Assembly: GCA_963814355.1 (NCBI GenBank)
Contig: CAWFCZ010000018.1
Location: 854,590-918,589 of the forward strand
DNA length: 64,000 nucleotides
From: an uncultured Actinomycetota bacterium
GTDB taxonomy: Bacteria > Actinomycetota > Actinomycetes > JADGOV01
Direction: 5' to 3'
The notes under the pieces are model-generated. The model was not told the origin of the DNA. It was given only the letters and a program-made list of their open reading frames with translations, and did not search any database. The position numbers and the translations under genes are program-made. The stretch's first letter is position 1; each line of letters opens with the position of its first letter. Shown here piece by piece: positions 10,694 to 29,115 of the stretch.

Positions 10694-12067
10694 GTGCCGC
10701 AACGACGCCCGGTGACGCGGCGGTCGCGGCTGAGCCATGCACTGCGGCTGCACCACCCGGCGCAGGCCGTCATCTACGCCTTCGCGATCGCGGTGGCGGT
10801 GGGCACGGTGCTGCTCATGCTGCCCGCGTCCTCGGCCGACGGCGGCGCCAGCACCTTCCGGGTGGCGCTGTTCACCTCCACCTCCGCGCTGTGCGTCACC
10901 GGGCTCACGGTGGTCGACACCGCCACGCACTGGTCGGCCTTCGGGCAGGTGGTGATCCTGGCCGGCATCCAGACCGGCGGCTTCGGCATCATGACCTCCG
11001 CGTCCTTGCTCGGCCTGCTCGTCTCCCGGCGGCTCGGGCTGCGTACCCGGCTGGTGGCCCAGACCGAGACCAACTCGCTGGCCCTCGGTGACGTCAGCCG
11101 GGTGCTGCGGGGAGTGGCGCTGACCAGCCTGTCCATCGAGGCGCTGGTGGCCATGCTGCTGACGGTTCGGCTGGTGGCCGGCGGCGGCGTCGGCCTGGGC
11201 CGGGCGATCTACCTCGGGGTCTTCCATTCGGTGTCGGCGTTCAACAACGCGGGCTTCGCGCTGTGGAGCGACAGCCTGGTGCGTTACGTCAGCGACCCCT
11301 GGTTCTGCCTGCCGATCGCGGCCGCCACGATCGTCGGTGGTCTCGGCTTCCCGGTGCTGTTCGAGCTCCGCCGCGAGCTTCGCTCGCCCCGACGATGGTC
11401 CGTACACACCAAGATCACTTTGCTAGCGACGATCGTGCTGCTCGCCAGCGGCATGGTCGTCCTGCTGGCCCTGGAATGGACCAACCCGGCGACGCTGGGG
11501 CCGCTGCACGCGCCCGGCAAAGTGCTGGCCGGCTTCTTTCAGAGCGTGATGCCGAGGACCGCGGGCTTTAACAGCCTGGACTACGGCCAAATGGGCAAGG
11601 AGTCCTTGCTGGTGACCGACGTCCTGATGTTCATCGGCGGCGGGAGCGCCAGCACCGCCGGTGGTATCAAGGTGACCACGTTCACCGTTTTGCTGTTCGC
11701 GATCCTGGCTGAGGCCCGCGGCGACGAGGCCGTCGAGTCCTTCGGACGCCGGGTGCCGCCCGCGGCCTTGCGCCAGGCCCTGTCGGTGGCCCTGCTCGGC
11801 GTCGCGATGGTGGTCGCCGGGACGCTCGCCATGCTGGAGATCACCGGGCTCGGGCTTGACCAGGTCCTGTTCGAAGTGGTGTCGGCCTTCGCCACGGTCG
11901 GCCTGTCCACCGGCATCACCCCCACCTTGCCGGCGGCCGCTCAGTACCTGCTGGTGGGGTTGATGTTCAGCGGCCGGGTGGGGACAGTCACCCTAGCCTC
12001 CGCGCTGGCCCTGCGGCAACGGCGGCGGCTGTACCAACTACCGGAGGAGCGACCCATCATTGGCTAG
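10694..12067 (+). CDS. trkH: TrkH/KtrB family potassium uptake membrane protein
   Basis: 457 aa polytopic membrane protein with the repeated selectivity-filter-like motifs of the Trk/Ktr family (GFNNAG, TAGFNSLD, GGGSASTAGGIKVTTF). Confidence 0.75.
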   Translation: MPQRRPVTRRSRLSHALRLHHPAQAVIYAFAIAVAVGTVLLMLPASSADGGASTFRVALFTSTSALCVTGLTVVDTATHWSAFGQVVILAGIQTGGFGIMTSASLLGLLVSRRLGLRTRLVAQTETNSLALGDVSRVLRGVALTSLSIEALVAMLLTVRLVAGGGVGLGRAIYLGVFHSVSAFNNAGFALWSDSLVRYVSDPWFCLPIAAATIVGGLGFPVLFELRRELRSPRRWSVHTKITLLATIVLLASGMVVLLALEWTNPATLGPLHAPGKVLAGFFQSVMPRTAGFNSLDYGQMGKESLLVTDVLMFIGGGSASTAGGIKVTTFTVLLFAILAEARGDEAVESFGRRVPPAALRQALSVALLGVAMVVAGTLAMLEITGLGLDQVLFEVVSAFATVGLSTGITPTLPAAAQYLLVGLMFSGRVGTVTLASALALRQRRRLYQLPEERPIIG

Positions 12068-12725
12068 GCGACTAGGGGAAGACGCGGTCCTGGTGATCGG
12101 GCTCGGTCGATTCGGCGGCGCCCTGGCCCTGATGCTGGAACGGCTGGGCCACGAAGTGCTGGCCGTCGACGCCAGTCACGCCCTCGTCCAGGAGTACTCC
12201 GGGGAAATCACGCACGCGGTGGAAGCCGACGCGACCAGCGCGGCGGCCCTGCGCCAGATTGGCGCCCGGGATTTCAAGACGGCCATCGTGGCCATCGGCA
12301 CCGGCATCGAGGCCAGCCTGCTCAGCGCCGGCGCGCTGGTGGACCTCGGAGTGCCGCAGATCTGGGCCAAGGCGATCACCACCCCCCACGGTCGCATCCT
12401 CGAGCGCATCGGCGTCCAGCACGTGGTCTATCCGGAACGCGCGATGGGCCAACGGGTCGCACACCTCATCTCCGGCCGGATCCTGGACTTCATCGAGTTC
12501 GACGACGGGTTCGCGATCGCGAAGCTCAAAGCCCCTCATCACGTAACCGGGCAGACCCTCGCCCAGTCCGGGCTGCGCACCAAGTACGGCGTCACGATCG
12601 TCGGGGTCAAGAGCCCGGGCCAGGACTTCACCCATGCCCAGCCGGAGACCTTGGTGGCCCACCGGGACCTACTGATCGTGTCCGGGCAGACCATCCTCGT
12701 GGAGGAGTTCGCCGCCACCCTCTGA
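12060..12725 (+). CDS. trkA: TrkA/KtrA potassium transporter NAD-binding regulatory subunit
   Basis: Overlaps trkH by 8 bp. It has an N-terminal Rossmann GxGxxG (VIGLGRFGGALA) and a C-terminal TrkA-C domain. Confidence 0.75.
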   Translation: MARRLGEDAVLVIGLGRFGGALALMLERLGHEVLAVDASHALVQEYSGEITHAVEADATSAAALRQIGARDFKTAIVAIGTGIEASLLSAGALVDLGVPQIWAKAITTPHGRILERIGVQHVVYPERAMGQRVAHLISGRILDFIEFDDGFAIAKLKAPHHVTGQTLAQSGLRTKYGVTIVGVKSPGQDFTHAQPETLVAHRDLLIVSGQTILVEEFAATL

Positions 12726-14916: not shown

Positions 14917-15266
14917 AAGCTTCCTTCTCTGGGCCTTTCGAAGTTTGGCCGCGACACCATCGCCGCCGGGTACCCGGGCGGAAGCCGCGGGCGGTGCGGG
15001 CGGTGCTCCTCACGGTGCGGTTGGTTTGGGCTTCGGTACCGGCGTTCGTGATCCCGGTTTCGTCAACCGCATCGCTCCGGCGGCCTCGAAGACACTACGG
15101 TCTTGCACATCGACTCTGGGCTTAGGTTCCGCCGCTGCTGCTCGCACCGTTCGTGGTCCGCGAAACGGCCCGTCGTCCCGGCGAGCCGCTACGGGCACGG
15201 CACGGAGCGCCCGGCAAATACAGCGGAACCGCGCCACTGTGTGACAACTCGCGTACAGTGGGCAAT

Positions 15267-17141
15267 ATGGTGGTGGGGGATGTGCTGTCCGGGGTGTTGA
15301 GCGAGTTCGCCCGCACCCTGGTCACCGACTTCCCCATCCAGGGCATTCTGGATCATCTGGTGCAGCGCATCGTCGAGGTGCTGCCGGTGACCGGCGCCGG
15401 GGTGACCTTGATCTCCCCGGGGATGGCCCCGCAGTACGTCGCGGCCTCGGATGAGCTCGCGTTGGCGTTGGAGCGGCTGCAGACCGAGTTAGGGCAGGGA
15501 CCGTGCCTGGCCGCCTACGAGACGGGCGCGACGATTGTGGTGGCGGATCTGGCCGTCGACGTGCGCTTCCCGGCGTTCGGGCTGGCGGCGGTGGAGGCGG
15601 GGATGGCGGCGGTGTTCACCTTCCCGCTGCGCCACGGCGGCGGCTGCCTCGGAGCGTTGGGCCTCTACCGGGTGACCTCGGGCCCGCTAAGCCCGGCTGA
15701 CCTGGCCGCCGCGCAGACCCTCGCCGACGTCACCTCGGCCTACCTGCTCAACGCCCAGGCCCGGGACCAGGCGCTGGAGATCTCCGACCGGTTCCGGGAC
15801 AGCGCGCTGCACGACGCGCTGACCGGGCTGCCGAACCGGGTCCTGCTCCAACAGCGGCTGACCCACGCCGCCGAACGCTCCCAACGCTCCCACGCCACAG
15901 TGGCGGTGCTGTTCGCCGACCTCGACCGGTTCAAACACGTCAACGACAGCTACGGCCACGCCGTCGGCGATGAGCTGCTGGTCGCCGTGGCGCAGCGGCT
16001 GGCCGGGGTGCTCCGCCCCGGGGACACCCTGGCCCGGGTCTCCGGAGATGAGTTCGTCGTGCTGTGTGAGGACCTCGCCGACGCCGGCGACGCCGAACTC
16101 CTCGCCGCCCGGATCGCAGAGGCGTTCAGTACCCCGTTCGGGCTGGGCGGCCTCGAGCTGTTCGTGACCGCCAGCGTCGGCATCGCCTACGCCGGCGCCG
16201 GTGAGGCCGTCACCAACCAGCTGGTAATCGACGCGGACATCGCCATGTACCAGGCGAAACGCCGCGGCGGCGCCGCCCACCAGGTGATCGACCTGCGCGA
16301 CGCCCAGATCGGCCACGCCCGCAACCACCTCGACCAGGACCTATACGCCGCGCTGACCCGGGCCCAGCTCGACCTGGCCTACCAGCCGATCGTCCGCACC
16401 GCCGACCGTTGCGTCAGCAGCGTGGAAGCGCTGCTGCGCTGGGCGCACCCCGACCACGGCCCGATACCCGCGCTGGCCGCCGTCAGCGTCGCCGAGCAGA
16501 ACGGGCTGATCACCCAGATCGGCGCCTGGGTACTGGAACGCAGCTGCCGGGACCGGATGTCCTGGCTCGCGGCGCACCCCACCCGGGCACTCGGCCTCTC
16601 GGTGAACGTCTCCGCCCGCCAACTGCTCGGCGCCGGCTACGCCGCCGCCGTCGCCGCCGCGTTGGACACCACCGGGATGGACCCCGCCGCCCTCACCCTG
16701 GAACTCACCGAAGGCATCTTCATCGACAACGCTGACCGCGGGCTGAACGTACTCACCGACCTGAAAACCCTCGGCGTGGCACTCGCGCTCGACGACTTCG
16801 GCACCGGCTACAGCTCCCTCGGCTACCTACGGCAGTTCCCCGTCGACATAGTCAAAATCGACCGAGGCTTCATCGCCGACATCGGCCGCAACCCCGCCGG
16901 CGTCGCGATCATCACCGCCGTCACCACCCTCGCCCACACCCTCGGGCTCACCGTCACCGCCGAAGGCGTCGAAACCCAACGACAACACGACACGGTCACC
17001 AGGATCGGCTGCGACCACGCCCAAGGCTTCCTCTACGCCCAACCCATGCCCCGGGACGACATCACCCGCCTGCTCACCAGCCCAGCCCGACCCCTCCGCC
17101 GCCACGCAGCACCCAACCTCACGCTGCTCCTCGACCGGTAG
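15267..17141 (+). CDS. GAF-GGDEF-EAL c-di-GMP signalling protein
   Basis: ATG at 15267 (MVVGDVLSGV). N-terminal GAF domain. GGDEF domain with a GDEF active-site variant (RVSGDEFVV). EAL domain with ELTE, DDFGTGYSSL and KIDRGFI motifs. Confidence 0.75.
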   Translation: MVVGDVLSGVLSEFARTLVTDFPIQGILDHLVQRIVEVLPVTGAGVTLISPGMAPQYVAASDELALALERLQTELGQGPCLAAYETGATIVVADLAVDVRFPAFGLAAVEAGMAAVFTFPLRHGGGCLGALGLYRVTSGPLSPADLAAAQTLADVTSAYLLNAQARDQALEISDRFRDSALHDALTGLPNRVLLQQRLTHAAERSQRSHATVAVLFADLDRFKHVNDSYGHAVGDELLVAVAQRLAGVLRPGDTLARVSGDEFVVLCEDLADAGDAELLAARIAEAFSTPFGLGGLELFVTASVGIAYAGAGEAVTNQLVIDADIAMYQAKRRGGAAHQVIDLRDAQIGHARNHLDQDLYAALTRAQLDLAYQPIVRTADRCVSSVEALLRWAHPDHGPIPALAAVSVAEQNGLITQIGAWVLERSCRDRMSWLAAHPTRALGLSVNVSARQLLGAGYAAAVAAALDTTGMDPAALTLELTEGIFIDNADRGLNVLTDLKTLGVALALDDFGTGYSSLGYLRQFPVDIVKIDRGFIADIGRNPAGVAIITAVTTLAHTLGLTVTAEGVETQRQHDTVTRIGCDHAQGFLYAQPMPRDDITRLLTSPARPLRRHAAPNLTLLLDR

Positions 17142-17176
17142 ACCACCCCACCAGGCCCAACCAGGGGCGAACCGCC

Positions 17177-17430
17177 ATGCTGCCCCGGGTGCCGTTCGCG
17201 TGCGCGCTGGTGGAGGTCGATGCCCGCACCGGATTCTGCGACCACCTGGTCCACGCCGGCGGGAAGGTCACCCGGCCGGCCGAGTTGACACGCAACCTGA
17301 TCTACGTGATCGTCGCCGGGGCCGCCAACATGGGCCTGACCGCGATGGCCGAGTCCTGCGGCGTGCCCGACGACGTGCTCGCCTGGACCGCCGAGTGGTA
17401 CTTCCGGCCGAGAGACCCGCATCCGAGCCG
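17177..17430 (+). pseudogene. Tn3-family transposase (TnpA) internal fragment, remnant
   Basis: LVEVDARTGFCDHLVHAGGKVTRPAELTRNLIYVIVAGAANMGLTAMAESCGVPDDVLAWTAEWYF matches the conserved Tn3 TnpA block (..GFT..F.H......NlGl.kMA.....y..laW...W..r.ety). Only about 85 aa are present, with no start context or remainder of the roughly 1,000-aa protein and no inverted repeats seen. Confidence 0.5.
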
Positions 17431-17453
17431 AGGAATGCGCGAGTTACCCCCCG

Positions 17454-20400
17454 ATGGGCGAGCCCATGTTGTGCCTCATCGGGCGCATCGTCGGCCGCAG
17501 CCCCGTCACTCAAGATCGGGGCCTGCGGTACCGACCAGGGAGAGGTGAACCTTCCCCGGACGCGATCACGGAGCCGGGCGGTGTTGCCGGCCATCCGGCG
17601 CCTGCCGCCCGCCGGGGGGCGGGTGGATCGGTGACGGGCTTCGCCGCGGCGGTAGTCGCGTCGACGGCTGCGGTCGGCGGCGTCGCGGTTGTCCTCAGCG
17701 CTGGTGCTGACGCGGGGTTGGCGCAGGGAGTCGGCGATGTGGCCAGCTTGCTGGCCGCCGTGGTGGCGGTGCTTGCCTGTGCGCGCGCCGCCCGCAGGTC
17801 CGGGCCGGATGCTCGGGAGTGGGCGTTGCTGGCCCTAGCGGTCGGGGTCTGGGCGGCGGGGGCTCTGACTTGGGCGGTGTACGGCTTTACCCGGCACCAT
17901 GTCCACTCCTTCCCGTCGGCCGCCGACATCGGATTTCTCGGCTATTCGGCGCCTGCCGTGGTCGCCCTGTTGGCCTTCCGGCGGCGTGCGGTCCGCGCAG
18001 TATCGCGGGTGCCGGGGGTGCTCGACGGCCTTGTCGTCGGCACCGCGATCCTCTTCACGGGATGGGCCTTCGTGCTCGGCCCGCAGTACTACTCTGCTAG
18101 CGCGGGTTGGTCGGCCCGGGCTACGGGGCTTGCCTATCCGCTTGTCGATGCGGCGATCGCCTCGCTGGTCCTCGTTCTGGCAATGCGCCAGGTCCATGGC
18201 GCGCGGCTGCCTTGGGCGCTGGTGGGCTGCGGCCTGCTGGCGCTGACGGTGACCGACAGCATCTACGTGTCGCTGACCTTGAGCGGTCGGATCGGTCTGA
18301 CCGGCACTGCGCTGAGCGCCGGCTGGGTCGCTGCCTTTCTGCTGGTCGCTGTCGCGACGGTGGCGCCCCATCGGCTGACGGCACCCGGCCGGGTGCGGCG
18401 TATCGCGGTTGGCCAGGAGTTCCTCCCCTACGTTCCGGTGGCCATCGCGCTGATCGTCGCCGCCTACGAGCGGGTCTTCAGTGACCCCGTCCTGCTCGGC
18501 GTCGGCGCACTACTCCTTGTCCTGGTCGGTATCCGTCAGTTTTTGATCACGGTGGAGAGGGTCGCCCTGACCGACGACCTCGAGCACAGGGTGGCACGAC
18601 GCACCGCCGAGTTGCTCAGTGCCCGGGAAGACCTTCAGGATGCCTTCGACAATGCACCAATCGGTATGGTATGGGCCGACCTGGCCGGGACGTTCGTGCA
18701 GGTGAACCCCGCCTTCTGCCGGATGGTGGGCCGCAGCCGAGACGAGCTGGTCGGAACCCGGATCGGGGACATCACCTTTCCAGCGGACGTGGCTGCCAGC
18801 GAACTTCGCATGTCTCGGGGTGCTTCGAGCGAATCCCGAATCCCGCAGTTCGAGAAGCGCTACCGGCACGCCGACGGCAGCGGGGTGTGGGGGGAGGTCA
18901 GCCTGTTGCTCACCCGAGACGCGGCCGGTGCCCCGAAGTTCTTCCTCGCCCAGATCCAGGACATCACCGAACGCCGGTCCTCGGCGGCGCGCACCAAGGC
19001 CAACGAGGCCGTCTTCCTCGACGCGGTCCTGGAAAACCTCGACTCCGGCGTGATCGGCTGCGACGCCGAAGGCCGCCCGACCGTGTACAACCGGGCCAGC
19101 CGCGAACAATTCGGCCCACTCGTGCCGTCGCTCAATCCAGAGTTCTGGGCCGAACATTATGGCTTCTACCGGGCCGACGGAATCACCCCGCTGCCCACGC
19201 GGGAGATCCCCCTGTTCCGGGCATTGAGCGGCGAGCTCGTCGTCGACGTCGAAATGGTCATCGCGCGAAAAGGCGGCGACCCACGGACGGTGGTCGCCAA
19301 TGGGCACGCCATCAGCGGCGGCGACGGCGCCCCGCTCGGCGCGGTCGTGGTCACGCAGGACATCACCCAGCGCCGGAAGGCGGAGGCCGCCCTGAGGCGG
19401 CAGGCGTTGCACGACCCGCTCACCGACCTGCCCAACCGGGCGCTGCTGCGCGACCGGCTCGAGCACGCGATCGCCCGCCAAGCCCGTCAGCCGCACCCCC
19501 TGGCGCTGCTGCTGCTGGACCTGGACGGCTTCAAAATCGTCAACGACAGCCTCGGCCACCAGGCCGGCGACGAGGTCCTCATCACCCTCGCCGGACGCCT
19601 ACGCGCCTCGCTGCGCCCGGACGACACCATCGCCCGGCTGGGCGGCGACGAGTTCGCCGTCGTCCTGGAGAACACTTCAGAGGCCCAGGCCACCTCCATC
19701 GCGGCCCAAATCCTGGCAGTCATACGCCATCCCATCTCCATCCAAGGTCGATCGATCACCTCAGACGCCTCGGTCGGCATCACGACCAGCATCGGAGCCG
19801 ACGACCCGGAGACGCTGCTGCGCAACGCCGACCTGGCGATGTACGCGGCGAAGGACCACGGAAAGGGCAACATCCAGGTCTTCCACGCCTCCATGCACGA
19901 GACAGTCGTGGACCGGTTGACCCTCGATGCCGAACTCCGCGAAGCCGTCGACAAACGCCAGTTCACCCTCGCCTACCAGCCGATCGTGTCGCTGATCACC
20001 GGCCACCTCCAAGGCCTCGAAGCACTACTCCGGTGGAACCACCCCGACCACGGAGTCACGTCGCCATCGGCCTTCATCCCGCGGGCGGAGGCCACCGGAC
20101 TCATCGTGCCGATCGGACGAGGGGTGCTGCGCGAGGCGTGCCGCCAAGCCCGCGCATGGCGCCAGATCCTTCCCGACGCCCAGGACCTCACCATCTCGGT
20201 GAACCTCTCCGTCCGCCAGCTGCAAGACCCGGCGATCCTCGACATCGTCGCCGCCGCGCTGAGCGACACCGGCCTGCCGGCCGGGCAGCTACAGCTGGAA
20301 ATCACTGAAAGCGTCGTCGGTCGACGCGGGGATATCGTCGCGATCCTCCACCGCCTGCACGCCACCGGTGTCCATCTCGCCATCGACGACTTCGGCACCG

Positions 20401-20747
20401 GCTACTCCTCGCTCAGCCGCCTGCACGCACTGCCGGTCGACGTGGTCAAGATCGACAAGTCGTTCATCGACGCCCTCGCCGGCGGCGGCCCGGCGCCTCT
20501 GGTCGCCGCCACCATCTCCATGGCGCACAGCCTCGGGTTGCAGACCGTGGCCGAAGGTGTCGAAACGACCGACCAGCTGCCGTTCCTACGCCTCCACGGC
20601 TGCGACAACGTGCAGGGCTACCTGTTCGGCCGCCCCCTCGCCGCCGACGCGGTCACCGCGTTGCTGCGTCAGCGAGGCACCGGCAAGCTATGGGCGAATC
20701 CCGCCACGCCGGCCGGCCGTCCCCGCACTCAACCCCGGAGTGACTGA
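17454..20747 (+). CDS. Membrane-anchored PAS-PAS-GGDEF-EAL c-di-GMP signalling protein
   Basis: About 9-10 predicted TM helices in the N-terminal 350 aa. Two PAS domains (NAPIGMVWADLAGTFVQVNPAFCRMVG...). GGDEF (RLGGDEFAV). EAL (ELTE, DDFGTGYSSL, KIDKSFI). The true start may be the in-frame GTG at 17631; the upstream part overlaps the Tn3 remnant frame region. Confidence 0.75.
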   Translation: MGEPMLCLIGRIVGRSPVTQDRGLRYRPGRGEPSPDAITEPGGVAGHPAPAARRGAGGSVTGFAAAVVASTAAVGGVAVVLSAGADAGLAQGVGDVASLLAAVVAVLACARAARRSGPDAREWALLALAVGVWAAGALTWAVYGFTRHHVHSFPSAADIGFLGYSAPAVVALLAFRRRAVRAVSRVPGVLDGLVVGTAILFTGWAFVLGPQYYSASAGWSARATGLAYPLVDAAIASLVLVLAMRQVHGARLPWALVGCGLLALTVTDSIYVSLTLSGRIGLTGTALSAGWVAAFLLVAVATVAPHRLTAPGRVRRIAVGQEFLPYVPVAIALIVAAYERVFSDPVLLGVGALLLVLVGIRQFLITVERVALTDDLEHRVARRTAELLSAREDLQDAFDNAPIGMVWADLAGTFVQVNPAFCRMVGRSRDELVGTRIGDITFPADVAASELRMSRGASSESRIPQFEKRYRHADGSGVWGEVSLLLTRDAAGAPKFFLAQIQDITERRSSAARTKANEAVFLDAVLENLDSGVIGCDAEGRPTVYNRASREQFGPLVPSLNPEFWAEHYGFYRADGITPLPTREIPLFRALSGELVVDVEMVIARKGGDPRTVVANGHAISGGDGAPLGAVVVTQDITQRRKAEAALRRQALHDPLTDLPNRALLRDRLEHAIARQARQPHPLALLLLDLDGFKIVNDSLGHQAGDEVLITLAGRLRASLRPDDTIARLGGDEFAVVLENTSEAQATSIAAQILAVIRHPISIQGRSITSDASVGITTSIGADDPETLLRNADLAMYAAKDHGKGNIQVFHASMHETVVDRLTLDAELREAVDKRQFTLAYQPIVSLITGHLQGLEALLRWNHPDHGVTSPSAFIPRAEATGLIVPIGRGVLREACRQARAWRQILPDAQDLTISVNLSVRQLQDPAILDIVAAALSDTGLPAGQLQLEITESVVGRRGDIVAILHRLHATGVHLAIDDFGTGYSSLSRLHALPVDVVKIDKSFIDALAGGGPAPLVAATISMAHSLGLQTVAEGVETTDQLPFLRLHGCDNVQGYLFGRPLAADAVTALLRQRGTGKLWANPATPAGRPRTQPRSD

Positions 20748-20855
20748 ACGGAAGCTGTCAAGCCGCTGGCTGCGGGGGACGATGCAGCGAGTGGCTACGG
20801 TCGGCGAGCCGGATATGTTCTGCCATTGGGGCGATGTCGCCGCTGAGGAGGGGTC

Positions 20856-21692
20856 ATGAGCGACGACCAGGGGCGATTCGCTCGGCTCGACGACCGGCGG
20901 CGTCGGTTGCCGCGGCCGCGTACGCCGAAGGGTCTCGACCCGGCGGTCGTCCTGGCGCTGCACGAAGCCACCCGCCGGCTGCTCGACGCGGTGGAACCAG
21001 CGGATGTGGTGGAGGCCGCGACGGACCTGGTCAACGAACTCGGTGGCAGCGTGGTGCCGGCCGCCCGGGCCGGTGCGGATGTGCTGCCCCTGGACCTTTC
21101 CTTCGGCTCGACCGACCCCCTGCTCCCGGCTGCCCCGCGGGCCAGCGTGGCGCGGATGCATCTCGAGACGTTGCTGCCTGCCTTCCTCGAAGACGCCCGT
21201 CGATCGGTGATGGAGTTGCGCGGTAAGAGCTCGCTGCAGAATGAGGCGACTCGGGACCATCTGACCGGGTTGCTCAACCGGCGGACGCTTGACCGACGGC
21301 TGAGCCAGCTGCGAGTCGGGGATCCAGTCGCGATCCTGGATTTGGACTTCTTCAAGCAGCTCAACGACACCGAAGGACACGCCGCCGGCGACGCCGTACT
21401 CGTCGCTTTCGGTCGGGTTGTCCGTCAGCATGTCCCCAGCGGCGACATCGCTGGCCGGTACGGCGGTGAAGAATTCGTCGTTGCCCTCCGCGGGGCGGCT
21501 CCTGCGACGCTGCTGGCCCGGCTGACCGAGATCCGGCGGGCGTGGGAAACCGTCCGGCCGTTCTCGGTGTCGTTCTCGGCCGGGGTGAGCGTCGTGACCA
21601 CTACCGGCGCCCGGGCTTTGCAGGTTGCCGACCAGGCGCTCTACGTGGCCAAACAGCGGGGGCGAAACCGAATAGAGATGGCTTCGGCGTGA
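20856..21692 (+). CDS. GGDEF-domain diguanylate cyclase with uncharacterised N-terminal sensory domain
   Basis: 278 aa. The C-terminal GGDEF domain has an intact GGEEF active site (RYGGEEFVV) and an RxxD-like I-site context. The N-terminal roughly 120 aa is of unknown function. The stop overlaps the start of the next gene (GTGA). Confidence 0.75.
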   Translation: MSDDQGRFARLDDRRRRLPRPRTPKGLDPAVVLALHEATRRLLDAVEPADVVEAATDLVNELGGSVVPAARAGADVLPLDLSFGSTDPLLPAAPRASVARMHLETLLPAFLEDARRSVMELRGKSSLQNEATRDHLTGLLNRRTLDRRLSQLRVGDPVAILDLDFFKQLNDTEGHAAGDAVLVAFGRVVRQHVPSGDIAGRYGGEEFVVALRGAAPATLLARLTEIRRAWETVRPFSVSFSAGVSVVTTTGARALQVADQALYVAKQRGRNRIEMASA

Positions 21693-22714
21693 CGGCTACA
21701 CGGCCCCTTCATGCTGTGGTGGCTCAATTCCTGGACCTCATCCGGCAGCGCGCTCCCGTGGCCGCGGCTGCTCTCGCCGTCGCGCAGCTTCAGCACGGAT
21801 ATCGACCTGACCAGGTCATCTCCGACCTGCTGGTGCCTGTGCAGGTGGAGGTTGGGCGACGTTGGCACCGCGCACTGTGGACGGCCGCGGATGAGCATCA
21901 GGCGACAGCGGTGACCGACGCCGCGCTGTACGGCGTCACATCTGACGGTATCCGGCCTCGGGAGATCCGGGGAACCGCGGCCGTCGCCTGCGCCGTCGGC
22001 GACTGGCATGTCCTGCCGTCACGAATGGCGGCGGAGTTGCTGCGCCTCGACGGCTGGGACGTCCTGTTCCTCGGCGGTTCGCTCCCGCCAGCGGATCTTT
22101 CCCAGTGGTTGATCGACGCCCGACCGGACGTCCTGGTGGTGTCCTGCTCGATGCCGACAACTGCCCGCAGCGTCGTGGCCACCGCGATGGCGGGGGCCGA
22201 AGTCGGCGTTCCGGTCGTCGTCGGCGGACGTGGCATGGGCCCGGACGGTAGGCGCGCGGCCGCGCTCGGCGTGCGATGGGCGGCGGACCTCAAGTGCCTG
22301 GCGGCTGCCCTAGCGGCTCCAACACCTGCCACCGCCCAACGAGAACTGGCCGAACGGCTGGAGGAGCACTCGCAGCTACTCCTGCGGCGTACGGAGATCG
22401 TCGCCGGGGCTGTCAACGAACTCGGCCGGCTGTGGCCGGCGATGTCCGCGTTCTCCGACACTCAGATGTCCCGGACCAGCGAGGACTTCGGCCATATCGT
22501 CGACTTCCTCGGGGCCGCTGTGGCCACCGATGATCCGCGTCTCTTCGGCGAGTTCGTCGATTGGCTTCGGCTGCTACTGTCCTCCCGCCATCTACCGCCA
22601 GCGGTGCTGCAGATCAGCCTGCGCGCCCTGGCCGCGGCGCTTCCCCGCGAGTTGCCGCTGGCCCCGGCGATCCTGGCCACCACCCGCGACTCGTTACCTA
22701 TGGAGGTGCGGTGA
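21689..22714 (+). CDS. Stand-alone cobalamin (B12)-binding domain protein (CarH C-terminal-like sensor module, no DNA-binding domain) with extra C-terminal helical domain
   Basis: GTG start at 21689 overlapping the upstream stop (GCGTGACGG). B12-binding_2 helical bundle with a W..EH motif (VGRRWHRALWTAADEHQATAVTD). B12-binding Rossmann domain with a DxHxx(G) variant (AVGDWHVLPSRMAAELLRLDGWDVLFLGGSLP...DVLVVSCSMP...VVVGG). Followed by about 150 aa of uncharacterised helical sequence. Confidence 0.55.
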   Translation: MTATRPLHAVVAQFLDLIRQRAPVAAAALAVAQLQHGYRPDQVISDLLVPVQVEVGRRWHRALWTAADEHQATAVTDAALYGVTSDGIRPREIRGTAAVACAVGDWHVLPSRMAAELLRLDGWDVLFLGGSLPPADLSQWLIDARPDVLVVSCSMPTTARSVVATAMAGAEVGVPVVVGGRGMGPDGRRAAALGVRWAADLKCLAAALAAPTPATAQRELAERLEEHSQLLLRRTEIVAGAVNELGRLWPAMSAFSDTQMSRTSEDFGHIVDFLGAAVATDDPRLFGEFVDWLRLLLSSRHLPPAVLQISLRALAAALPRELPLAPAILATTRDSLPMEVR

Positions 22715-23019
22715 CAGCACCGGCATTCGTCGTGACCAGTGAGGTCACTATCCCCGAAAGTGCCGCCGAGGGACTGGAGGCGGCGTTCACGGCGCGCCTC
22801 GGCGAAGTGGACAGTTTCCCCGGCTTCCAACGCCTTGAGGTCTGGCGAGACACCGCAAGCCGAGGGACGTACCTTATGGTGTCCTGGTGGGATAGCCGGC
22901 GGGACTTCACCAGCTACATGCGTTCCGCGCAACACCGGCGATCCCACCAGCGCATCCCGACCGAGCCGGTCAAGCCTCGTGGGACCGGAGTACACCGGTT
23001 CGAACGCATCTCCTGTTGA
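22711..23019 (+). CDS. Antibiotic-biosynthesis-monooxygenase (ABM) domain protein
   Basis: GTG at 22711 overlapping the upstream stop (GTGA), with GGAGGTG SD immediately upstream. A 102-aa ferredoxin-like ABM fold signature is present (FQRLEVWRD...YLMVSWWDSRRDFTSYMRSAQH). Confidence 0.55.
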   Translation: MTAPAFVVTSEVTIPESAAEGLEAAFTARLGEVDSFPGFQRLEVWRDTASRGTYLMVSWWDSRRDFTSYMRSAQHRRSHQRIPTEPVKPRGTGVHRFERISC

Positions 23020-23144
23020 CGGCTTCCATCCTGCCGTCGTAGGTGCGAACTCGACGCCGCATAATGATCGTTTCCCCGCACCCGAAAGCTTCGCACCGGA
23101 CTTGCGGCTCTCACCGCATCTCGGCTCACGCAAGCCACGGGGGC

Positions 23145-23955
23145 TCACGGCAGCCGCGTTGAAGTCCCGGGCGTCGTACCACGGCACCTGCCCGCCAGGG
23201 ACGAAGTAGAGGAGGACCAGCGCCGAGCGCTCGTTCGACCTCTCGGCATCGAAACCCAGGGACTCCAGGACCGTCGAGCGTGAGGCGAAGGTGTGCAGGC
23301 GGTCGACGACCACGGCGTTGCGAGGAGGAACATGCGGAAACGTTTGACGTACGGACCGTTGGCGAACGACCGAGGGGTGATCGCGACGAGTTGTCCGCCG
23401 GGACGAAGCGACAGCACCCCCACGGTCACGAAGGCGGCATAGAGGGTCGGGGCGTCGACCCCCATAGCGGCGAGCGTCGGTGGCCGAGTTAGTCGCCAAC
23501 TTGCCGTACGGTGGATTCATGATCACCAAGTCGTATGCGTCGTACTCGTGTGCGGTGCCCATCCCGGTGCCCGCATAGAGCAGGTCCTCGCACCGGACGT
23601 CGACCGTCACGGTTACACCCCGTTTACGCGCCCACTCGACGCACAGCGCGGCCGTCGCCTCCAGTGCCGGAAGGAGGGCCGGGTCCACCTCCACCGCCGT
23701 GACGGCTATTGTCGTTCTCGGCTTGTCCGCCACCATGCGCTGCACAAGCGCGGCCAGCAACATGCCCGACCCAGCACCCGGGTCCAAGACGCGCATGGGT
23801 CCGTCCCCGTCCGGCAGGCGCGGCATGTGTGCCATCAGGGCCGCCGCACGTTCAGGAGTGAAGAACTGGCCGAGGCGCGCCTGCTGCCTCTCGTCCAGGC
23901 TTGCGAGCGTCAAGACCCTGAGCGCCTCAGCACGTTTCAGAAGATCGTTCGCCAC
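23145..23955 (-). pseudogene. Frameshifted and 3'-truncated Eco57I/type-IIG-like N6-adenine DNA methyltransferase (restriction-modification remnant)
   Basis: N-terminal 170 aa in one frame carry motif X/I/IV of gamma-class N6-MTases (LGQFFTP..., VLDPGAGSG, MNPPYGK). Continuation (GVDAPTLYAAFVTVGVLSLRPGGQLVAITPRSFANGPYVKRFRMFLL) is in a different frame (ORF 23145..23465), then stops. The expected large C-terminal specificity/endonuclease region is absent. The remainder of the long ORF 22462..23144 is antisense read-through of the B12/ABM genes. Confidence 0.5.
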
Positions 23956-24002
23956 GAGAAAACCCTACGGTTGACCACCGACAAAACCGGCGATCCTGCT
24001 TG

Positions 24003-25592
24003 CTATTCCCATTCGATGGTGCCCGGCGGCTTGCTGGTGACGTCCAGCACCACCCGGTTGACCCCGGGCACTTCGTTGGGAATGCGCCCGGAGATTGTGC
24101 CCAGCACGTCATAGGGCAGCCGAGCCCAGTCCGCAGTCATCGCGTCGGCCGAGGTGACCGGTCGCAGCACGACCGGATGGCCGTAGGTGCGACCGTCGCC
24201 TTGGACGCCGACGGAACGTACCTCGGCGAGGAGTACCACCGGGCACTGCCAGATCTCCCGGTCCAGCCCGGCCCGGGTCAACTCCTCGCGAACGATGGCG
24301 TCCGCCGCCCTGAGCATCTCCAGCCGTTGCACGGTCACTTCGCCGACGATCCGGATCCCGAGGCCCGGCCCAGGGAACGGCTGGCGCCAGACAATCTCCG
24401 GTGGCAGCCCCAACTCCTCACCGACCCGCCGCACCTCGTCCTTGAACAACAGCCGAAGCGGCTCGACGAGGGCGAAGGTGAGATCGTCGGGCAGCCCGCC
24501 GACATTGTGGTGCGACTTGATCGTGGCCGTACTTGAGCCGCCTGAGCCGCCCGACTCGACGACGTCCGGATAGAGGGTCCCCTGGACGAGAAACTCGACC
24601 GGTTCGGTCTCCTCCAGCCCCCGGGCGGCTTGCTCGAAGGCCCGGATGAACTCCCGCCCGATCGCCTTGCGCTTCTCCTCCGGGTCGCGAATCCCGGCCA
24701 GCGCCGCCATGAAGGCCGGTACTGCGTCCGCCACGTGCAGCCGGACACCGGTGGCGGCCACGAAATCCCGCTCGACCTGCTCGGCTTCGCCGGCCCGCAG
24801 CAGGCCGTGGTCGACGAAGACGCACTCCAACTGGTCGCCGATCGCCCGCTGGACCAGCGCGGCTGCCACCGCCGAGTCCACTCCGCCGGACAGCCCGCAG
24901 ATCACCCGCTTGCCGCCGACCTGCGCCCGGATCGCCTCGATGGAGTCGGTGACGATGTTGAGCATCGTCCAGGTCGGGCGACAGCCGGCAGCGTCGAGCA
25001 AGAAGTGCCGCAGCATGTCCGACCCGCGGTCGGTGTGCAGCACCTCCGGGTGGAACTGGACGCCGTACAGCCCGCGCGCGGGATGCTCGAACGCCGCTAC
25101 CGGGGTCGCCTCGGTGGCCGCAGTGACCCGGAACCCGTCCGGGGCCGAGCGCACCGAGTCACGGTGGGACATCCAGACCGACGCGGCCGGCGGCAGGCCG
25201 GCGAACAGCGTGCCCGGATCGCGGACCGACAACGCGGTGGCGCCGTACTCCGCGGTGCCGGTCCGGGCCACCTCGGCGCCGAGGGCCTGGGCCATGGCCT
25301 GGAAGCCGTAGCAGATCCCGAGCGTCGGTACCCCGGTGGCGAACAGCGCGGCCGGTACGGCCGGGGCGTCGGGGGCGTACACCGACGACGGTCCCCCGGA
25401 GAGCACGATCGCCTTCGGGTGCTTGGCCAGCATCTCCGGCAGGGCCATCGACCAGGGCACGATTTCGGAGTAGACGTGGCACTCCCGGATCCGGCGGGCG
25501 ATGAGCTGGGCGTACTGGGCGCCGAAGTCCACCACCAGGACGCGGTCATGCCCAGCCGCGTCGGCGGCCGGCGTCTCGGTGGCGTGCGTCAT
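24003..25592 (-). CDS. guaA: GMP synthase (glutamine-hydrolysing)
   Basis: Start at M53 of the ORF (MTHATE...). N-terminal class-I glutamine amidotransferase (GICYGFQ catalytic Cys). ATP pyrophosphatase P-loop SGGVDS. C-terminal dimerisation domain. Full-length GuaA. Confidence 0.9.
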
Positions 25593-25728
25593 CTGCTGAG
25601 GGTATCGGCGGTGGGGCGCACCGGGTCCGCGGCACGCCAGCACCGCGGAGAGCCGCCGCCACCTGCTCCAAAGCCTCACGACCGGCGCCGGCGCCGACCG
25701 CGCCGGCACAATCAGGTTCCGGTCGAAG

Positions 25729-26472
25729 TCAATCCCGGCCGCCTCCACCGGGCCGCACCAGGTTGAGCAGCCGTCGGGGAAGCGCGAAGACGGCGTACCG
25801 CTTCGCCGGAGCGACCGCTACTATCGGCCAGCCGGATCGTTGGGCTTTCTCGCGCAGCTCCCGGTCGGGGTTGACCGCGACCGGGTGACCGACTGCTTCC
25901 AGGAATGGTAGGTCGCTGATCGAGTCGCTGTAGGCGTAGCAGTCGGCCAGGTTGTAGCCGCGGTCCGCGGCGAGGAGCCGGATCTCCTCGGCTTTGCCCT
26001 CCTGGTAGCAGAACGGCCCGGCCAGCACGCCGGTGTAGCGGCCCCCCTCGTCGATTTGCGACCGGGTACCGACCGCGCCCTCGAGCCCGAGCTGGTCGGC
26101 CAGCGGCCGGACGATCTCCACCGGTGAGGCCGACACCACGAAGCGGTCGTGGCCCGCCGAGCCGTGCTCGGCCAGCAACGCCCGAGCCTCTGGCAGCACT
26201 GACGCGACAAGTTTGGGGACGAAGCCCTCGCTCAACGCGGTGAAGTCGGCCGCCGGATGCCCGGCCACCACCCGCAGGATCCGCTCGCGCAGGGCCGCGG
26301 AACCCGCATCGGTCGCACCACGCAGCACGAATGACACCGCCGCCACCGCGTCCCACAGGAGGTCGCGCGGCGGGATGTAGCCAGCGCGGAACGCGGCCAC
26401 CGCCAGCGGGAAGGTGGCCGAGCCCCGGATCAGCGTCCGGTCAAGGTCGAAGAAGGCCGCCGTGACAGTCAT
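25729..26472 (-). CDS. HAD-superfamily subfamily IB hydrolase (PSPase-like)
   Basis: Start at ATG 26472 ([14 protein letters not shown] = HAD motif I DxDxT). Motif-IV-like acidic pair near the C-terminus (YAYSDSISD). Confidence 0.65.
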
Positions 26473-27846: not shown

Positions 27847-29115
27847 TCAGCGCCGTCGCTGGGAGCCGCGGTAGCCCGCCCATGGGTCGTAGTCGACCTC
27901 GAGTTCGGCCTGCTCGGGACGTTGCTCCTCCGGGACGTGCTGGAGGTTGATCCGCACGCGATACCACACTGAGCTGCTGCCGCGCATGCCGTCGACGAGC
28001 ACGTCGGAGTCCTCCAGCAGCGGCACCAGATCGGGGTGTTTCGCCTGCCAGGACTCGAGGCCGGCGAGCGCCTCCGGTTTCGTACGGGCTCGAGCCACCT
28101 CGACGAGCGGCATGCGGGGCGTTCGCCGCCCGGTCCCCTTCGGGGGCTTCTCCACCGGGCCGAGCCGCTCGGCCAGCGCCAGCAGTGCCTCCAGCGACCC
28201 CGGTTCGGCGTCGAACCCGGCCCACGGGTCGCCGATCTCGGCGAACCGGGCGGGCGCGGTGGCGAGCGTGTGGTCCGGCGGGCGGACCTGGCGCACCTCG
28301 TCCCAGCGCAGCGGCGTGGACACCCGCGCGTCCGGCGTGGCCCGCACCGAGTACGCCGAGGCCACCGTGCGGTCCTTGGCGTTCTGGTTGAAGTCGACGA
28401 ACACCCCCTGACGTTCCTCCTTCCACCACCGGCTCGTCGCCAGCCCGGGCGCGCGGTGCTCCACCTCACGGGCCACGGCCTCCGCCGCCGACCGCACCTC
28501 GGGAAAGGTCCAGACCGGGTCGAGGCGGGCGTAGATGTGGAAGCCCCGGGAGCCGGACGTCTTCGGCCACGCCGACAGTCCCACGTCGGTAAGGACCTCC
28601 CGGACGACGAGCGCGACGTCGATGATCTGCCGCCACTCCACGCCCGGCACCGGATCCAGGTCGATACGCAGCTCGACGGGGTGCTCGAGGTCCTCAGCCA
28701 ACACCGGGTGCGGGTTGAGGTCCACGCAGCCGAGGTTGACCACATAGGCCAGCCCAGCCGCGTCGCGCACCACGATCTCGGCCGCCGAGGTCCCCGACGC
28801 GTAATGCAGCTCAGCGACCCCCAACCACTCCGGCCGCGTCGCCGGGGCCCGCTTCTGGAACACCGCCTCCTCGCCGATGCCCTTGACGAACCGCTTGAGG
28901 ATCATCGGCCGGCCGGCCACCCCGCGCAGCGCCCCCTCGGCGACCGACAAGTAGTAGCGGACCAGGTCCAGCTTGGTGTACCCGGCGGCGGGAAACACCA
29001 CCTTGTCCGGGTTGGTGATCACCACCTGGCGGCCGCACAGCTCGAGCACCCGCTCCCTCGATGTCGCCACACTGACAGACTCAACCGTGATCGACCACGG
29101 CGTCCAGCCCGCCAC
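27847..29115 (-). CDS. Stand-alone NHEJ DNA polymerase/primase domain (LigD-Pol, PolDom) with ~110-aa C-terminal extension
   Basis: Colinear with LigD polymerase domains (VVITNPDKVVFPAAGYTKLDLVRYY..., SGSRGFHIY catalytic Ser/His region, VDFNQNAKDRTVASAYSVRA). No ligase or 3'-phosphoesterase domain is fused. The extra C-terminal region is of unknown function. Confidence 0.7.
   Translation of the reverse strand: MAGWTPWSITVESVSVATSRERVLELCGRQVVITNPDKVVFPAAGYTKLDLVRYYLSVAEGALRGVAGRPMILKRFVKGIGEEAVFQKRAPATRPEWLGVAELHYASGTSAAEIVVRDAAGLAYVVNLGCVDLNPHPVLAEDLEHPVELRIDLDPVPGVEWRQIIDVALVVREVLTDVGLSAWPKTSGSRGFHIYARLDPVWTFPEVRSAAEAVAREVEHRAPGLATSRWWKEERQGVFVDFNQNAKDRTVASAYSVRATPDARVSTPLRWDEVRQVRPPDHTLATAPARFAEIGDPWAGFDAEPGSLEALLALAERLGPVEKPPKGTGRRTPRMPLVEVARARTKPEALAGLESWQAKHPDLVPLLEDSDVLVDGMRGSSSVWYRVRINLQHVPEEQRPEQAELEVDYDPWAGYRGSQRRR

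Follow-up and report, generated by a model that had tools for sequence, protein, structure and literature searches.

The three overlapping genes described here probably form a naturally split light-signalling unit, in which a stand-alone photocobilin acts on a diguanylate cyclase encoded as a separate polypeptide. This reading, which we hold with fairly good confidence, gives the cyclase's N-terminal domain an adaptor function and assigns a bilin- or heme-related role to the small ABM protein encoded by the third gene. The genes lie in a window of 64,000 nucleotides (the whole stretch of DNA analysed) from an uncultured Actinomycetota bacterium. An earlier reading of the window from sequence only had proposed a cobalamin- or light-gated c-di-GMP module, and this core idea is well supported by the sequence, by homologues of solved structure, by conserved gene neighbourhoods and by natural gene fusions. 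Control of a cyclase by a B12 and bilin photoreceptor is already known. The unit does exist and is conserved, yet for the most part it adds a further instance to a class of system already known.

The features identified are listed in Table 1. All three genes are on the forward strand and, as the sequence-only reading had stated, are chained by two GTGA overlaps, both of which can be read in the sequence.

Table 1. Features of the photocobilin/cyclase locus and its upstream neighbour (positions are those of the window)
Feature	Position	Strand	Details
Upstream membrane PAS-GGDEF-EAL protein, 1097 aa	17454..20747	+	Pfam; ends 108 nt 5' of gene 1
Shine-Dalgarno-like GAGGAGGGG	20845..20853	+	Precedes ATG of gene 1; strong site; read directly in sequence
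Gene 1, 278 aa: N-terminal adaptor domain (putative), long helix, GGDEF diguanylate cyclase	20856..21692	+	
Gene 1 N-terminal domain, residues 26-128; putative photocobilin-docking adaptor	20931..21239	+	Minimal GAF-like fold (predicted): helix-helix-strand-strand-long helix
GGDEF catalytic domain	21246..21671	+	GGEEF at 21462-21476; I-site position PSGD at 21435-21446
GTGA overlap, gene 1/gene 2	21689..21692	+	Gene 2 GTG at 21689; gene 1 TGA at 21690-21692
Gene 2, 341 aa, stand-alone photocobilin: B12-binding_2 + B12-binding + photoglobin	21689..22714	+	PDB sequence search
CarH-type adenosylcobalamin-binding module (by homology)	21725..22255	+	Four-helix bundle 21725-21928; Rossmann domain 21974-22255; Pfam
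Signature residues of gene 2	G56RRW59 21854-21865; E69H70 21893-21898; G104DWH107 21998-22009; G129xxxP133 22073-22087	+	
Photoglobin/bilin-binding globin domain (by homology), about residues 215-335	22331..22693	+	T263-x-x-D266 22475-22486; W292 22562-22564
GTGA overlap, gene 2/gene 3	22711..22714	+	Gene 3 GTG at 22711; gene 2 TGA at 22712-22714
Gene 3, 102 aa, IsdG-like ABM (ferredoxin-like) protein	22711..23019	+	S10 22738-22740; Y69 22915-22917; H79 22945-22947

The GTG start of gene 2 is backed by the N-termini of its homologues: the nearest relatives begin with 'MT..PLHAVV' in the same alignment column. A GGAGGTG sequence lies shortly 5' of the start of gene 3. Neither terminator-like nor promoter-like sites were found within positions 20300-23500. 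These results speak against the concern, raised with the original proposal, that the overlapping starts might be misassigned and the genes separated by terminators. An Rfam search of positions 16000-26000 gave no match, that is, no cobalamin or c-di-GMP riboswitch around the operon, and base composition between 14 and 27 kb shows no island-like anomaly. Overlaps of four nucleotides between the same types of gene also occur in unrelated loci (L009, L014, L023 and L085-L087), those in L085 and L087 being equivalent to the gene 1/gene 2 junction. Because they recur in this way, the coupling is a family trait and not the product of chance.

The PAS-GGDEF-EAL protein encoded upstream is probably an associated partner in c-di-GMP turnover, although we assign this role with lower confidence. 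GGDEF-EAL genes flank the module in several other loci (L001, L039, L061, L044, L029 and L005). A single open frame holds both the EAL gene and the gene 1-type gene (N-terminal domain plus GGDEF) in L039 and L061, and fusions with the order EAL, N-terminal domain, GGDEF are present in the proteins P0167, P0219 and P0244.

A Pfam HMM search of the three proteins, proposed as a check in the sequence-only reading, returned the expected domains in each case (GGDEF for gene 1, B12-binding_2 and B12-binding for gene 2, and ABM for gene 3), all exceeding the curated cut-offs. In gene 1 the GGDEF domain (residues 131-272, E 4e-29) is complete and its GG(D/E)EF active-site motif is intact, in the form GGEEF, in line with the original description of an active-looking diguanylate cyclase. 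Gene 1 is, judged by its sequence, a catalytically competent GGDEF cyclase. It lacks the inhibitory RxxD I-site, an optional feature, five residues ahead of GGEEF and reads PSGD at this position, so the product is unlikely to inhibit the enzyme via the primary I-site.

The two-part B12-binding architecture attributed to gene 2, CarH-like but lacking a DNA-binding domain, was confirmed. Pfam identifies B12-binding_2 (PF02607; residues 13-80, E 3e-9) and B12-binding (PF02310; residues 96-189, E 3e-14), and detects no helix-turn-helix domain (that is, none of the MerR type). The C-terminal 136 residues match nothing in Pfam or NCBIfam, even at E 10. They had been described as about 150 residues of novel helical sequence, which is incorrect: they align with SasPcob and correspond to the known photoglobin, or biliverdin-binding globin, domain (PMC8717448; PMC10979010). 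Since this domain has no Pfam model, its identity comes from a search of PDB sequences and from the literature. Using phmmer, gene 2 matches SasPcob (8J2W/8J2X) over residues 24-318 with E 4e-50 and AbPcob (8J2Y) over residues 21-340 with E 2.7e-40. The match to CarH (PDB 5C8A/5C8D; E about 1e-12) is limited to the B12 part, and with the NCBIfam CarH model the score is 61 bits, far short of the 400 bits required. A bilin as second chromophore had not been picked up in the earlier reading.

Gene 2 carries the full set of residues (G56RRW59, E69H70, G104DWH107 and G129GSLP133) corresponding to the published CarH-type light-responsive signature of GxxW, EH, GxxH and GxxxP (PMC11796333). These are invariant in the family alignment (A1) with the exception of E69, which is nearly so (>=90%, that is, at least 90%), and none of W59, E69, H70 and H107 is lost in any of the 80 genome loci. 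In the bilin pocket, D266 aligns with Asp270 of SasPcob (the key biliverdin ligand) and W292 with Trp296, which contacts the D-ring. The Asp is kept in 67/80 loci and the Trp in 79/80; the one remaining locus, L062, has an alignment gap at the Trp position. Family membership and motif conservation thus identify gene 2 as a stand-alone photocobilin, which would be expected to bind both adenosylcobalamin (AdoCbl) and a bilin.

B12-binding domains also serve as dark cofactor sensors or carriers. Gene 2 might similarly sense cobalamin availability or redox state and tune c-di-GMP with no role for light, and the weak NCBIfam matches to corrinoid proteins (for example, MtgC and MtaC) could be taken in this sense. 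We consider this very unlikely: the CarH-type signature is complete and the four residues listed above are universally kept, the nearest solved relatives are photoreceptors, and an attached bilin-binding domain makes sense for light sensing only.

We surveyed the gene neighbourhoods of 80 genome loci containing a relative of gene 2. A full gene 1-type cyclase (N-terminal domain and GGDEF) adjoins or is fused to the photocobilin in 43/80; in L011 the N-terminal domain is instead fused to MerR. All three genes occur together in 29/80, in Actinomycetota, so that the survey suggested by the sequence-only reading revealed co-located GGDEF genes and a conserved operon. Natural fusions are of three kinds. 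The cyclase is fused to the photocobilin in L017, L041 and L077. The cyclase carries the ABM domain at its C-terminus in nine loci, an arrangement confirmed by Pfam in L031. The third kind, a direct fusion of the N-terminal domain to a B12-binding domain, is found in P0242. L069 resembles a fusion but is in a different frame and was left out of the counts.

Could the three genes simply be chance neighbours, or share transcription without forming a functional unit? Nothing specific speaks for this beyond the 33/80 photocobilin loci that have other neighbours. Against it, the trio turns up repeatedly in different classes of Actinomycetota, arranged in three gene orders and with recurring four-nucleotide overlaps, and there are the three kinds of fusion and the reverse neighbourhood test described below. 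The comparative data effectively refute this explanation.

The N-terminal part of gene 1 had been reported as an unassigned domain of 120 residues. It is indeed absent from the domain databases (103 residues give nothing in Pfam or NCBIfam, even at E 10) but is not merely an unassigned part: it tracks the photocobilin. The domain, of about 100 residues and with a putative minimal GAF-like fold for which there is no Pfam model, was identified in 44/80 genome loci, and in 44/44 of these it is beside or fused to the photocobilin gene. In L011 and L035 it is linked to MerR in place of GGDEF. For the reverse test, six proteins with the N-terminal domain were picked independently, without reference to photocobilin; in 6/6 a B12-binding_2/B12-binding gene is located immediately downstream. 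The domain is therefore a partner-specific element of the cyclase and may provide the contact surface for the photocobilin.

Gene 3 is, as originally described, an ABM ferredoxin-like protein of roughly 100 residues (Pfam ABM, residues 6-80, E 1e-13). Its IsdG-like nature goes beyond the earlier description. A profile of the gene 3 family was compared with the PDB: 17/19 matches (best 2.6e-13) are to IsdG-type proteins, hypothetical ones included (TT1380, HmoB, MhuD, IsdI and IsdG), and the two lowest-scoring ones are to ABM proteins whose names do not mark them as IsdG-type. Matches to NCBIfam heme oxygenase models are weak (42 bits, cut-off 119). IsdG-family heme oxygenases are defined by a catalytic Asn-Trp-His triad (PMC5557675), and residue-by-residue alignment places S10, Y69 and H79 of gene 3 at these positions. 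The family alignment (A4) shows no variation at S10 and H79 and almost none at Y69; in a broader alignment of ABM loci the His is missing in L016, L048 and L050. The 'SWW' sequence was considered as the conserved catalytic Trp of IsdG but was rejected, as the profile alignment shows this to be another conserved Trp and the catalytic position to be occupied by Tyr.

The idea that the ABM protein is a bilin supplier is weakened by replacement of two of the three IsdG-defining residues (Asn by Ser and Trp by Tyr). That it might be a generic supplier for all photocobilins can be discarded: among the immediate neighbours of 33 SpoIIE/STAS-type loci, the 25 commonest of 63 Pfam families do not include ABM or heme oxygenase. 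The ABM protein therefore goes with the cyclase and not with photocobilins as a whole. Since it is also sometimes fused to the cyclase, a regulatory subunit explains the pattern no less well than an enzyme supplying the chromophore.

An ABM domain always dimerises, and GGDEF domains are active only as pairs. Within the same photocobilin-cyclase unit, the ABM protein could thus be a heme-, bilin- or redox-binding subunit that regulates or dimerises the cyclase, and the output would integrate light with heme or oxygen status. The co-occurrence with the cyclase, the nine C-terminal fusions and the exchange of Asn and Trp with retention of the His ligand all agree with this. We nevertheless judge it to be possible but rather unlikely. 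We know of no ABM protein that acts as a cyclase regulator. In addition, loci with ABM nearly always keep the bilin-ligating Asp (32/33 ABM-containing loci compared with 35/47 others; Fisher p = 0.011), and bilin photoreceptors commonly have heme oxygenase genes beside them or fused to them; a fusion of a heme oxygenase to a photoglobin has been reported (PMC8717448).

Under the preferred reading of a split light-signalling unit, the proteins might work as follows. Gene 2 would bind AdoCbl with His107 as the lower ligand and with the adenosyl group surrounded by Trp59 and Glu69-His70, while its photoglobin domain would hold a bilin beside the corrin through Asp266 and Trp292. By analogy with SasPcob and AbDPcob, the AdoCbl-loaded photocobilin would be a head-to-tail dimer in the dark and cyclase activity would be low. 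Green light acting directly on AdoCbl, or red light acting via the bilin, would break the Co-C bond; His70 would then take the upper axial position and the dimer would open. In its light state the photocobilin would engage the cyclase, with the putative minimal GAF-like domain and long helix of gene 1 as the adaptor through which it acts, and c-di-GMP synthesis would rise. Gene 3, which keeps the heme-ligating His, would most likely make or hand over a linear tetrapyrrole for the photoglobin pocket, or couple heme status to the system. Cofactor binding, the direction of regulation, the N-terminal domain as contact surface and the role of the ABM protein are proposals, and the direction is borrowed from a single characterised fusion that has His, not Asp, in the bilin pocket.

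A more far-reaching version can be put forward tentatively. The trio might form one stoichiometric complex, a new Ser-Tyr-His branch of IsdG-like proteins might make the photoglobin bilin from heme (possibly other than biliverdin IX-alpha), and the N-terminal domain might be a general 'receiver' for stand-alone photocobilins, attached to GGDEF, MerR, EAL or histidine kinase outputs. If true, this would answer the questions raised in 2024 concerning the targets of stand-alone photocobilins and the source of their bilin.

The photocobilin family was first characterised in 2024, including AdoCbl and biliverdin binding and a light-driven dimer-to-monomer change (Zhang et al. 2024, PMC10979010). 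The sequence-only reading held that a dedicated pairing of a GGDEF enzyme with a B12 partner, as separate but coupled polypeptides, was not described, and here it must be corrected. In AbDPcob, a GGDEF-B12-photoglobin fusion, light activates the cyclase more than 10-fold in vitro (>10-fold), a light-dependent change seen with AdoCbl and not with other cobalamins; the isolated AbDPcob cyclase is activated in trans by the light-state photocobilin, and stand-alone photocobilins were reported often to neighbour diguanylate cyclases (Zhang et al. 2024, PMC10979010). The same authors noted that the function of stand-alone photocobilins "is less clear", and their trans-regulation test used an artificially separated cyclase only (PMC10979010).

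The present locus and many of its relatives represent a natural split version with a dedicated, translationally coupled cyclase. They provide a defined physiological partner pair for studying light control of c-di-GMP in non-phototrophic Actinomycetota, while the basic picture of how the receptor works is unchanged. Three aspects are seemingly undescribed in the literature searched: the cyclase/photocobilin/ABM trio as a conserved Actinomycetota operon with cyclase-ABM and cyclase-photocobilin fusions; the putatively GAF-like N-terminal domain tied to photocobilins; and an IsdG-like ABM protein with Ser-Tyr-His instead of Asn-Trp-His. The small unannotated N-terminal domain marks the clients of photocobilins, both cyclases and MerR regulators, and could therefore help in finding targets across whole genomes and in building optogenetic couplings. 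The IsdG-like protein, with its altered triad and its link to the cyclase, may be the missing bilin source or a second (heme) input.

Several known systems resemble parts of the locus. In SiaD-SiaC (PDB 7E6G) a cyclase is activated by a separate protein binding its N-terminal stalk, but the score does not reach the family cut-off, and that system has an unrelated partner and involves neither light nor a cofactor. BphP-BphO operons and phytochrome-linked cyclases (for example, IsPadC, PDB 5LLW) use a PAS-GAF-PHY fold unrelated to the B12 module and globin; the locus differs in having two chromophores, a cyclase that is a separate polypeptide and an ABM-type rather than an HO-1-type oxygenase. 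IsdG/IsdI, MhuD, HmoB and LFO1 share with gene 3 the ABM fold, the PGF motif, the first Trp and the heme-ligating His. Gene 3, however, has the Ser-Tyr-His triad and lies in a photoreceptor operon rather than in an iron acquisition context, and some of its relatives are fused to GGDEF.

CarH/LitR, the MerR-family AdoCbl photoreceptor repressors, have a homologous AdoCbl module with the same light-responsive motifs. Gene 2 differs in lacking the MerR DNA-binding domain and in having the bilin-binding globin, and its output would be an enzyme partner rather than DNA binding. In related loci, a separate protein composed of MerR and the N-terminal domain adjoins the photocobilin, giving a split CarH-like arrangement. 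AbDPcob (from an Acidimicrobiaceae bacterium; 8J2Y is its photoreceptor part) has the domain order cyclase, B12 module, globin, which is that of gene 1 followed by gene 2, and the fused relatives L077, L017 and L041 share the N-terminal domain of gene 1. AbDPcob is a single polypeptide, whereas here the two parts are encoded by ORFs that lie in different frames and overlap by GTGA. In AbPcob a His replaces the bilin-ligating Asp and biliverdin is poorly bound, while gene 2 keeps the Asp, and the AbDPcob-like locus L077 has no ABM partner. SasPcob from Saccharothrix syringae (339 aa compared with 341) has the same four-helix bundle, Rossmann B12 domain and C-terminal bilin-binding globin as gene 2, the same W-x9-EH and D/ExH motifs and equivalent biliverdin ligands. 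Its context is different: SasPcob is associated with STAS/SpoIIE partner-switching proteins, whereas the partners to which gene 2 is translationally coupled are a dedicated cyclase and an ABM protein.

Gene 2 of the trio encodes a stand-alone photocobilin. Photocobilins combine a CarH-type adenosylcobalamin (AdoCbl) module with a C-terminal five-helix globin that holds biliverdin beside the corrin, an arrangement that adds red to the green-light response (Zhang et al. 2024, PMC10979010). The globin was predicted earlier as 'photoglobin' (Schneider et al. 2022, PMC8717448). A PDB sequence search matches gene 2 with SasPcob, the stand-alone photocobilin of Saccharothrix syringae (8J2W/8J2X; E 4e-50, residues 24-318), and with the photoreceptor part of the cyclase-photocobilin fusion AbDPcob (8J2Y; E 2.7e-40, residues 21-340). 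These matches span nearly the whole protein, while that with CarH (about 1e-12) covers the B12 part only. The stretch of about 150 aa described as novel helical sequence in the sequence-only reading is this published photoglobin domain, aligned here to solved photocobilins. Pfam has no model for it, which explains the earlier description.

The complete light-responsive signature (GxxW, EH, GxxH and GxxxP; PMC11796333) is present in gene 2 as G56RRW59, E69H70, G104DWH107 and G129GSLP133. These residues are invariant in a 21-member family alignment, except for the nearly invariant E69, and W59, E69, H70 and H107 are each retained in 80/80 genome loci. With numbering carried over from the PDB search alignment, D266 corresponds to Asp270 of SasPcob, the key biliverdin ligand, and W292 to Trp296, which contacts the D ring. 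Because both are matched, the gene 2 protein looks, from its sequence, like a fully bilin-competent photocobilin. AbPcob, the photoreceptor part of AbDPcob, has His where SasPcob has Asp270 and is a poor binder of biliverdin (PMC10979010).

Features of the window around the cyclase/photocobilin/ABM trio
Feature	Position	Strand	Length	Remarks
TrkH/TrkA potassium uptake genes	10694-12725	+		Ordinary housekeeping
GAF-GGDEF-EAL protein	15153-17141	+	662 aa	Assigned by Pfam
Membrane PAS-GGDEF-EAL protein	17454-20747	+	1097 aa	GGDEF and EAL motifs intact
Gene 1, GGDEF cyclase	20856-21692	+	278 aa	ATG start
Gene 2, photocobilin	21689-22714	+	341 aa	GTG start
Gene 3, ABM protein	22711-23019	+	102 aa	GTG start
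ORF overlapping gene 3	22462-23955	-	497 aa	Opposite strand; real part ~23200-23955
guaA (GMP synthase)	24003-25748	-		~1 kb downstream of trio
LigD primase-polymerase domain protein	27847-29115	-		Ordinary housekeeping

The GTGA overlaps proposed from the sequence are present at both junctions (21689-21692 and 22711-22714). GAGGAGGGG lies directly ahead of gene 1 and GGAGGTG directly ahead of gene 3. No terminator-like or promoter-like sites were found within 20300-23500, and there were no matches to Rfam families in 16000-26000. In favour of the GTG start of gene 2, its closest homologues open with 'MT..PLHAVV' in the same alignment column. P0001, a 99% identical database protein, has an annotated start nine codons later (332 aa; window position 21716 instead of 21689), with which the GTGA overlap would vanish; the homologue N-termini favour the longer form. 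The proposed domains are all recovered by Pfam above curated thresholds: GGDEF in gene 1 (residues 131-272), B12-binding_2 and B12-binding in gene 2 (residues 13-80 and 96-189) and ABM in gene 3 (residues 6-80). The GGEEF motif of gene 1 is intact, as had been noticed. Its I-site position reads PSGD, without RxxD, so product feedback through the I-site is not expected.

Gene 2 relatives were sought in one genome per species, and 119 loci turned up, almost all in Actinomycetota (Acidimicrobiia, Nitriliruptoria and Actinomycetes). We fetched 80 of these and sorted their neighbourhoods by tblastn and ORF analysis. This survey, suggested by the sequence-only reading, repeatedly finds a cyclase beside the gene 2 relative or fused to it. 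The order is cyclase, ABM, photocobilin in 18 loci; in 9, a cyclase fused to ABM precedes the photocobilin; and in 3 the cyclase is fused to the photocobilin (one with ABM upstream). A gene-1-type partner is followed by the photocobilin without ABM in 12 loci (11 cyclases, and L011, where the N-terminal domain of gene 1 is fused to MerR), and ABM is followed by the photocobilin in 4. The window's own order occurs once (L001, Catenuloplanes). The remaining 33 loci include neither cyclase nor ABM; their adjoining genes encode SpoIIE phosphatases in 14 cases and STAS proteins in 4, the context published for SasPcob (PMC10979010). Four-base overlaps recur at junctions of the trio type (L009, L014 and L023). 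The fused proteins, which include those of L077 (618 aa), L017 (609 aa) and L031 (376 aa), are independent evidence that cyclase, photocobilin and ABM protein work together. The L077 protein, being fused and having a His at the Asp position, is AbDPcob-like.

The region ahead of GGDEF in gene 1 (the N-domain, residues 26-128) has no match in Pfam but is conserved among about 24 full-length homologues (246-299 aa). AlphaFold2 predicts the entire protein with a pLDDT of 90.6 and the N-domain by itself with a pLDDT of 93.7 (pTM 0.85), as two helices, two short strands and a 30-residue helix continuing into the GGDEF domain. An HMM of the N-domain finds it in 44/80 loci, each time fused to the photocobilin or in the adjoining gene. 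Since these loci had been picked for having a photocobilin, we also ran a reverse test with three MerR-Ndom and three Ndom-GGDEF proteins, chosen solely for their resemblance to gene 1 or to the domain and for the length of their contigs. A B12-binding_2/B12-binding gene lies immediately downstream in 6/6, including all three MerR-Ndom cases (L082-L084). It encodes 339-358 aa in four, while in L084 and L086 it is broken over two ORFs; 4-nt overlaps are present in each of the three cyclase loci (L085-L087). On the simplest reading, stand-alone photocobilins would act on their client proteins through the N-domain, the putative surface of contact.

Three gene 1 homologues (P0031, P0034 and P0036) keep the N-domain with degenerate active-site motifs (GGEKL, YDDHR and YGPHH) and are, to judge from these motifs, probably inactive cyclases. 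Such proteins could function as receptors or scaffolds while remaining in a pair with a photocobilin, as P0031 is.

Searched with the N-domain profile, 1.84 billion representative proteins yield 536 matches at E <= 1e-3, of which 401 reach E <= 1e-10. The architectures sampled are MerR-Ndom, EAL-Ndom-GGDEF, GAF-EAL-Ndom-GGDEF, PAS-EAL-Ndom-GGDEF, GGDEF-EAL-histidine kinase-Ndom and Ndom-PAS-GGDEF-EAL. In P0242 (1594 aa) the N-domain follows PAS-GGDEF-EAL and is fused directly to a B12-binding module; in P0160 and P0171 (843 and 980 aa) it follows a GGDEF-EAL-histidine kinase core. These are hints of additional outputs addressed by photocobilins.

In the window, the two GGDEF-EAL genes and the trio are five consecutive, same-strand, head-to-tail genes assigned to c-di-GMP signalling, with the PAS-GGDEF-EAL gene ending 108 nt ahead of gene 1. 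GGDEF-EAL genes flank the photocobilin module in six other loci, and EAL is fused to Ndom-GGDEF elsewhere (database proteins P0167, P0219 and P0244; single open frames in L039 and L061). For these reasons, the PAS-GGDEF-EAL protein may act in this circuit as the phosphodiesterase that opposes the cyclase. On the other side of the trio, the 22462-23955 ORF is probably a gene remnant and no true overlapping gene: a truncated N6 adenine DNA methylase makes up its N-terminal part (Pfam N6_Mtase, residues 21-164 only) and the remainder is high-GC read-through overlapping gene 3 on the opposite strand. GTP is the substrate of diguanylate cyclases, and guaA lies nearby. Photocobilins are statistically linked with purine biosynthesis (PMC10979010); the proximity of guaA may be coincidence. 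A scan of nine neighbouring ORFs turned up no genes for cobalamin or heme biosynthesis.

Gene 3 is clearly related in sequence to the IsdG family. Every PDB relative is a heme-degrading monooxygenase of the IsdG type or an uncharacterised protein of the same kind (HmoB, TT1380, MhuD and one 'Monooxygenase'). A 20-member family profile gives 19 matches (best E-value 2.6e-13), of which 17 are again of this type, IsdI and IsdG among them; the remaining two, with the weakest scores, are ABM proteins that bear no IsdG-type name. NCBIfam heme-oxygenase models score gene 3 far below their cut-offs. By definition, the IsdG family has an Asn-Trp-His triad needed for heme degradation (PMC5557675). In the 20-member alignment, Ser is invariant where the triad has Asn (S10), Tyr is nearly invariant in place of the catalytic Trp (Y69), and the heme-ligating His is invariant (H79); the PGF motif is kept, as is the conserved Trp outside the triad. 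With Ser-Tyr-His in place of the triad, gene 3 falls outside the family as defined. Among the wider set of ABM loci, the His is missing in L016 (5603-5902), L048 (5603-5902) and L050 (5681-5911). L016 and L048 also have no cyclase gene, which suggests that the ABM protein decays or changes role where the cyclase is absent.

Heme oxygenase genes beside bacteriophytochromes supply bilin from heme, and gene 3 might do so for the photocobilin. The bilin-ligating Asp is commoner in ABM loci (32/33) than in the others (35/47; p = 0.011), which weakly supports bilin supply, and a reported heme oxygenase-photoglobin fusion (PMC8717448) also counts for it. In the same paper an 'ABM monooxygenase' is mentioned in passing among photoglobin neighbours and read as degrading antibiotics or heme. 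Alternatively, since the neighbours of loci lacking both partners indicate that the ABM gene follows the cyclase, not photocobilins generally, and since nine loci have the two fused, gene 3 could encode a cyclase subunit that binds heme or bilin and has a regulatory or dimerising role. We consider bilin supply somewhat more likely, although not by much.

By analogy with published photocobilin biochemistry, the AdoCbl-loaded gene 2 protein would be a head-to-tail dimer in the dark. Cleavage of the Co-C bond, by green light on AdoCbl or by red light through the bilin, would allow His70 to take the upper-ligand place and the dimer to open. The light-state protein would then act on the cyclase through the N-domain and its long helix, presumably increasing c-di-GMP synthesis. 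The comparison establishes the family membership, the conserved motifs and operons and the fusions; binding of the cofactors, the sign of regulation, the surface of contact and the role of the ABM protein are inferences from these.

The photocobilin family, the cyclase fusion and its light activation, and trans-activation of a separated cyclase have been published (PMC10979010). Stand-alone photocobilins are also known often to adjoin diguanylate cyclases. The proposal that such a pairing is an undescribed architecture is thus unsupported. We found no description in the searchable literature of the conserved three-gene operon and its fusions, of an associated branch of IsdG-like proteins with Ser-Tyr-His, or of the N-domain as a photocobilin-associated module common to cyclases and MerR regulators. 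MerR-Ndom proteins form more than 130 clusters. In L011 (5090-5815, +) and L035 (6989-7828, -), as in L082-L084, their genes stand beside photocobilin genes, the N-domain being joined to a MerR helix-turn-helix in place of GGDEF. Such a pair amounts to a divided CarH, with DNA binding in the client protein and B12/bilin sensing in a separate one.
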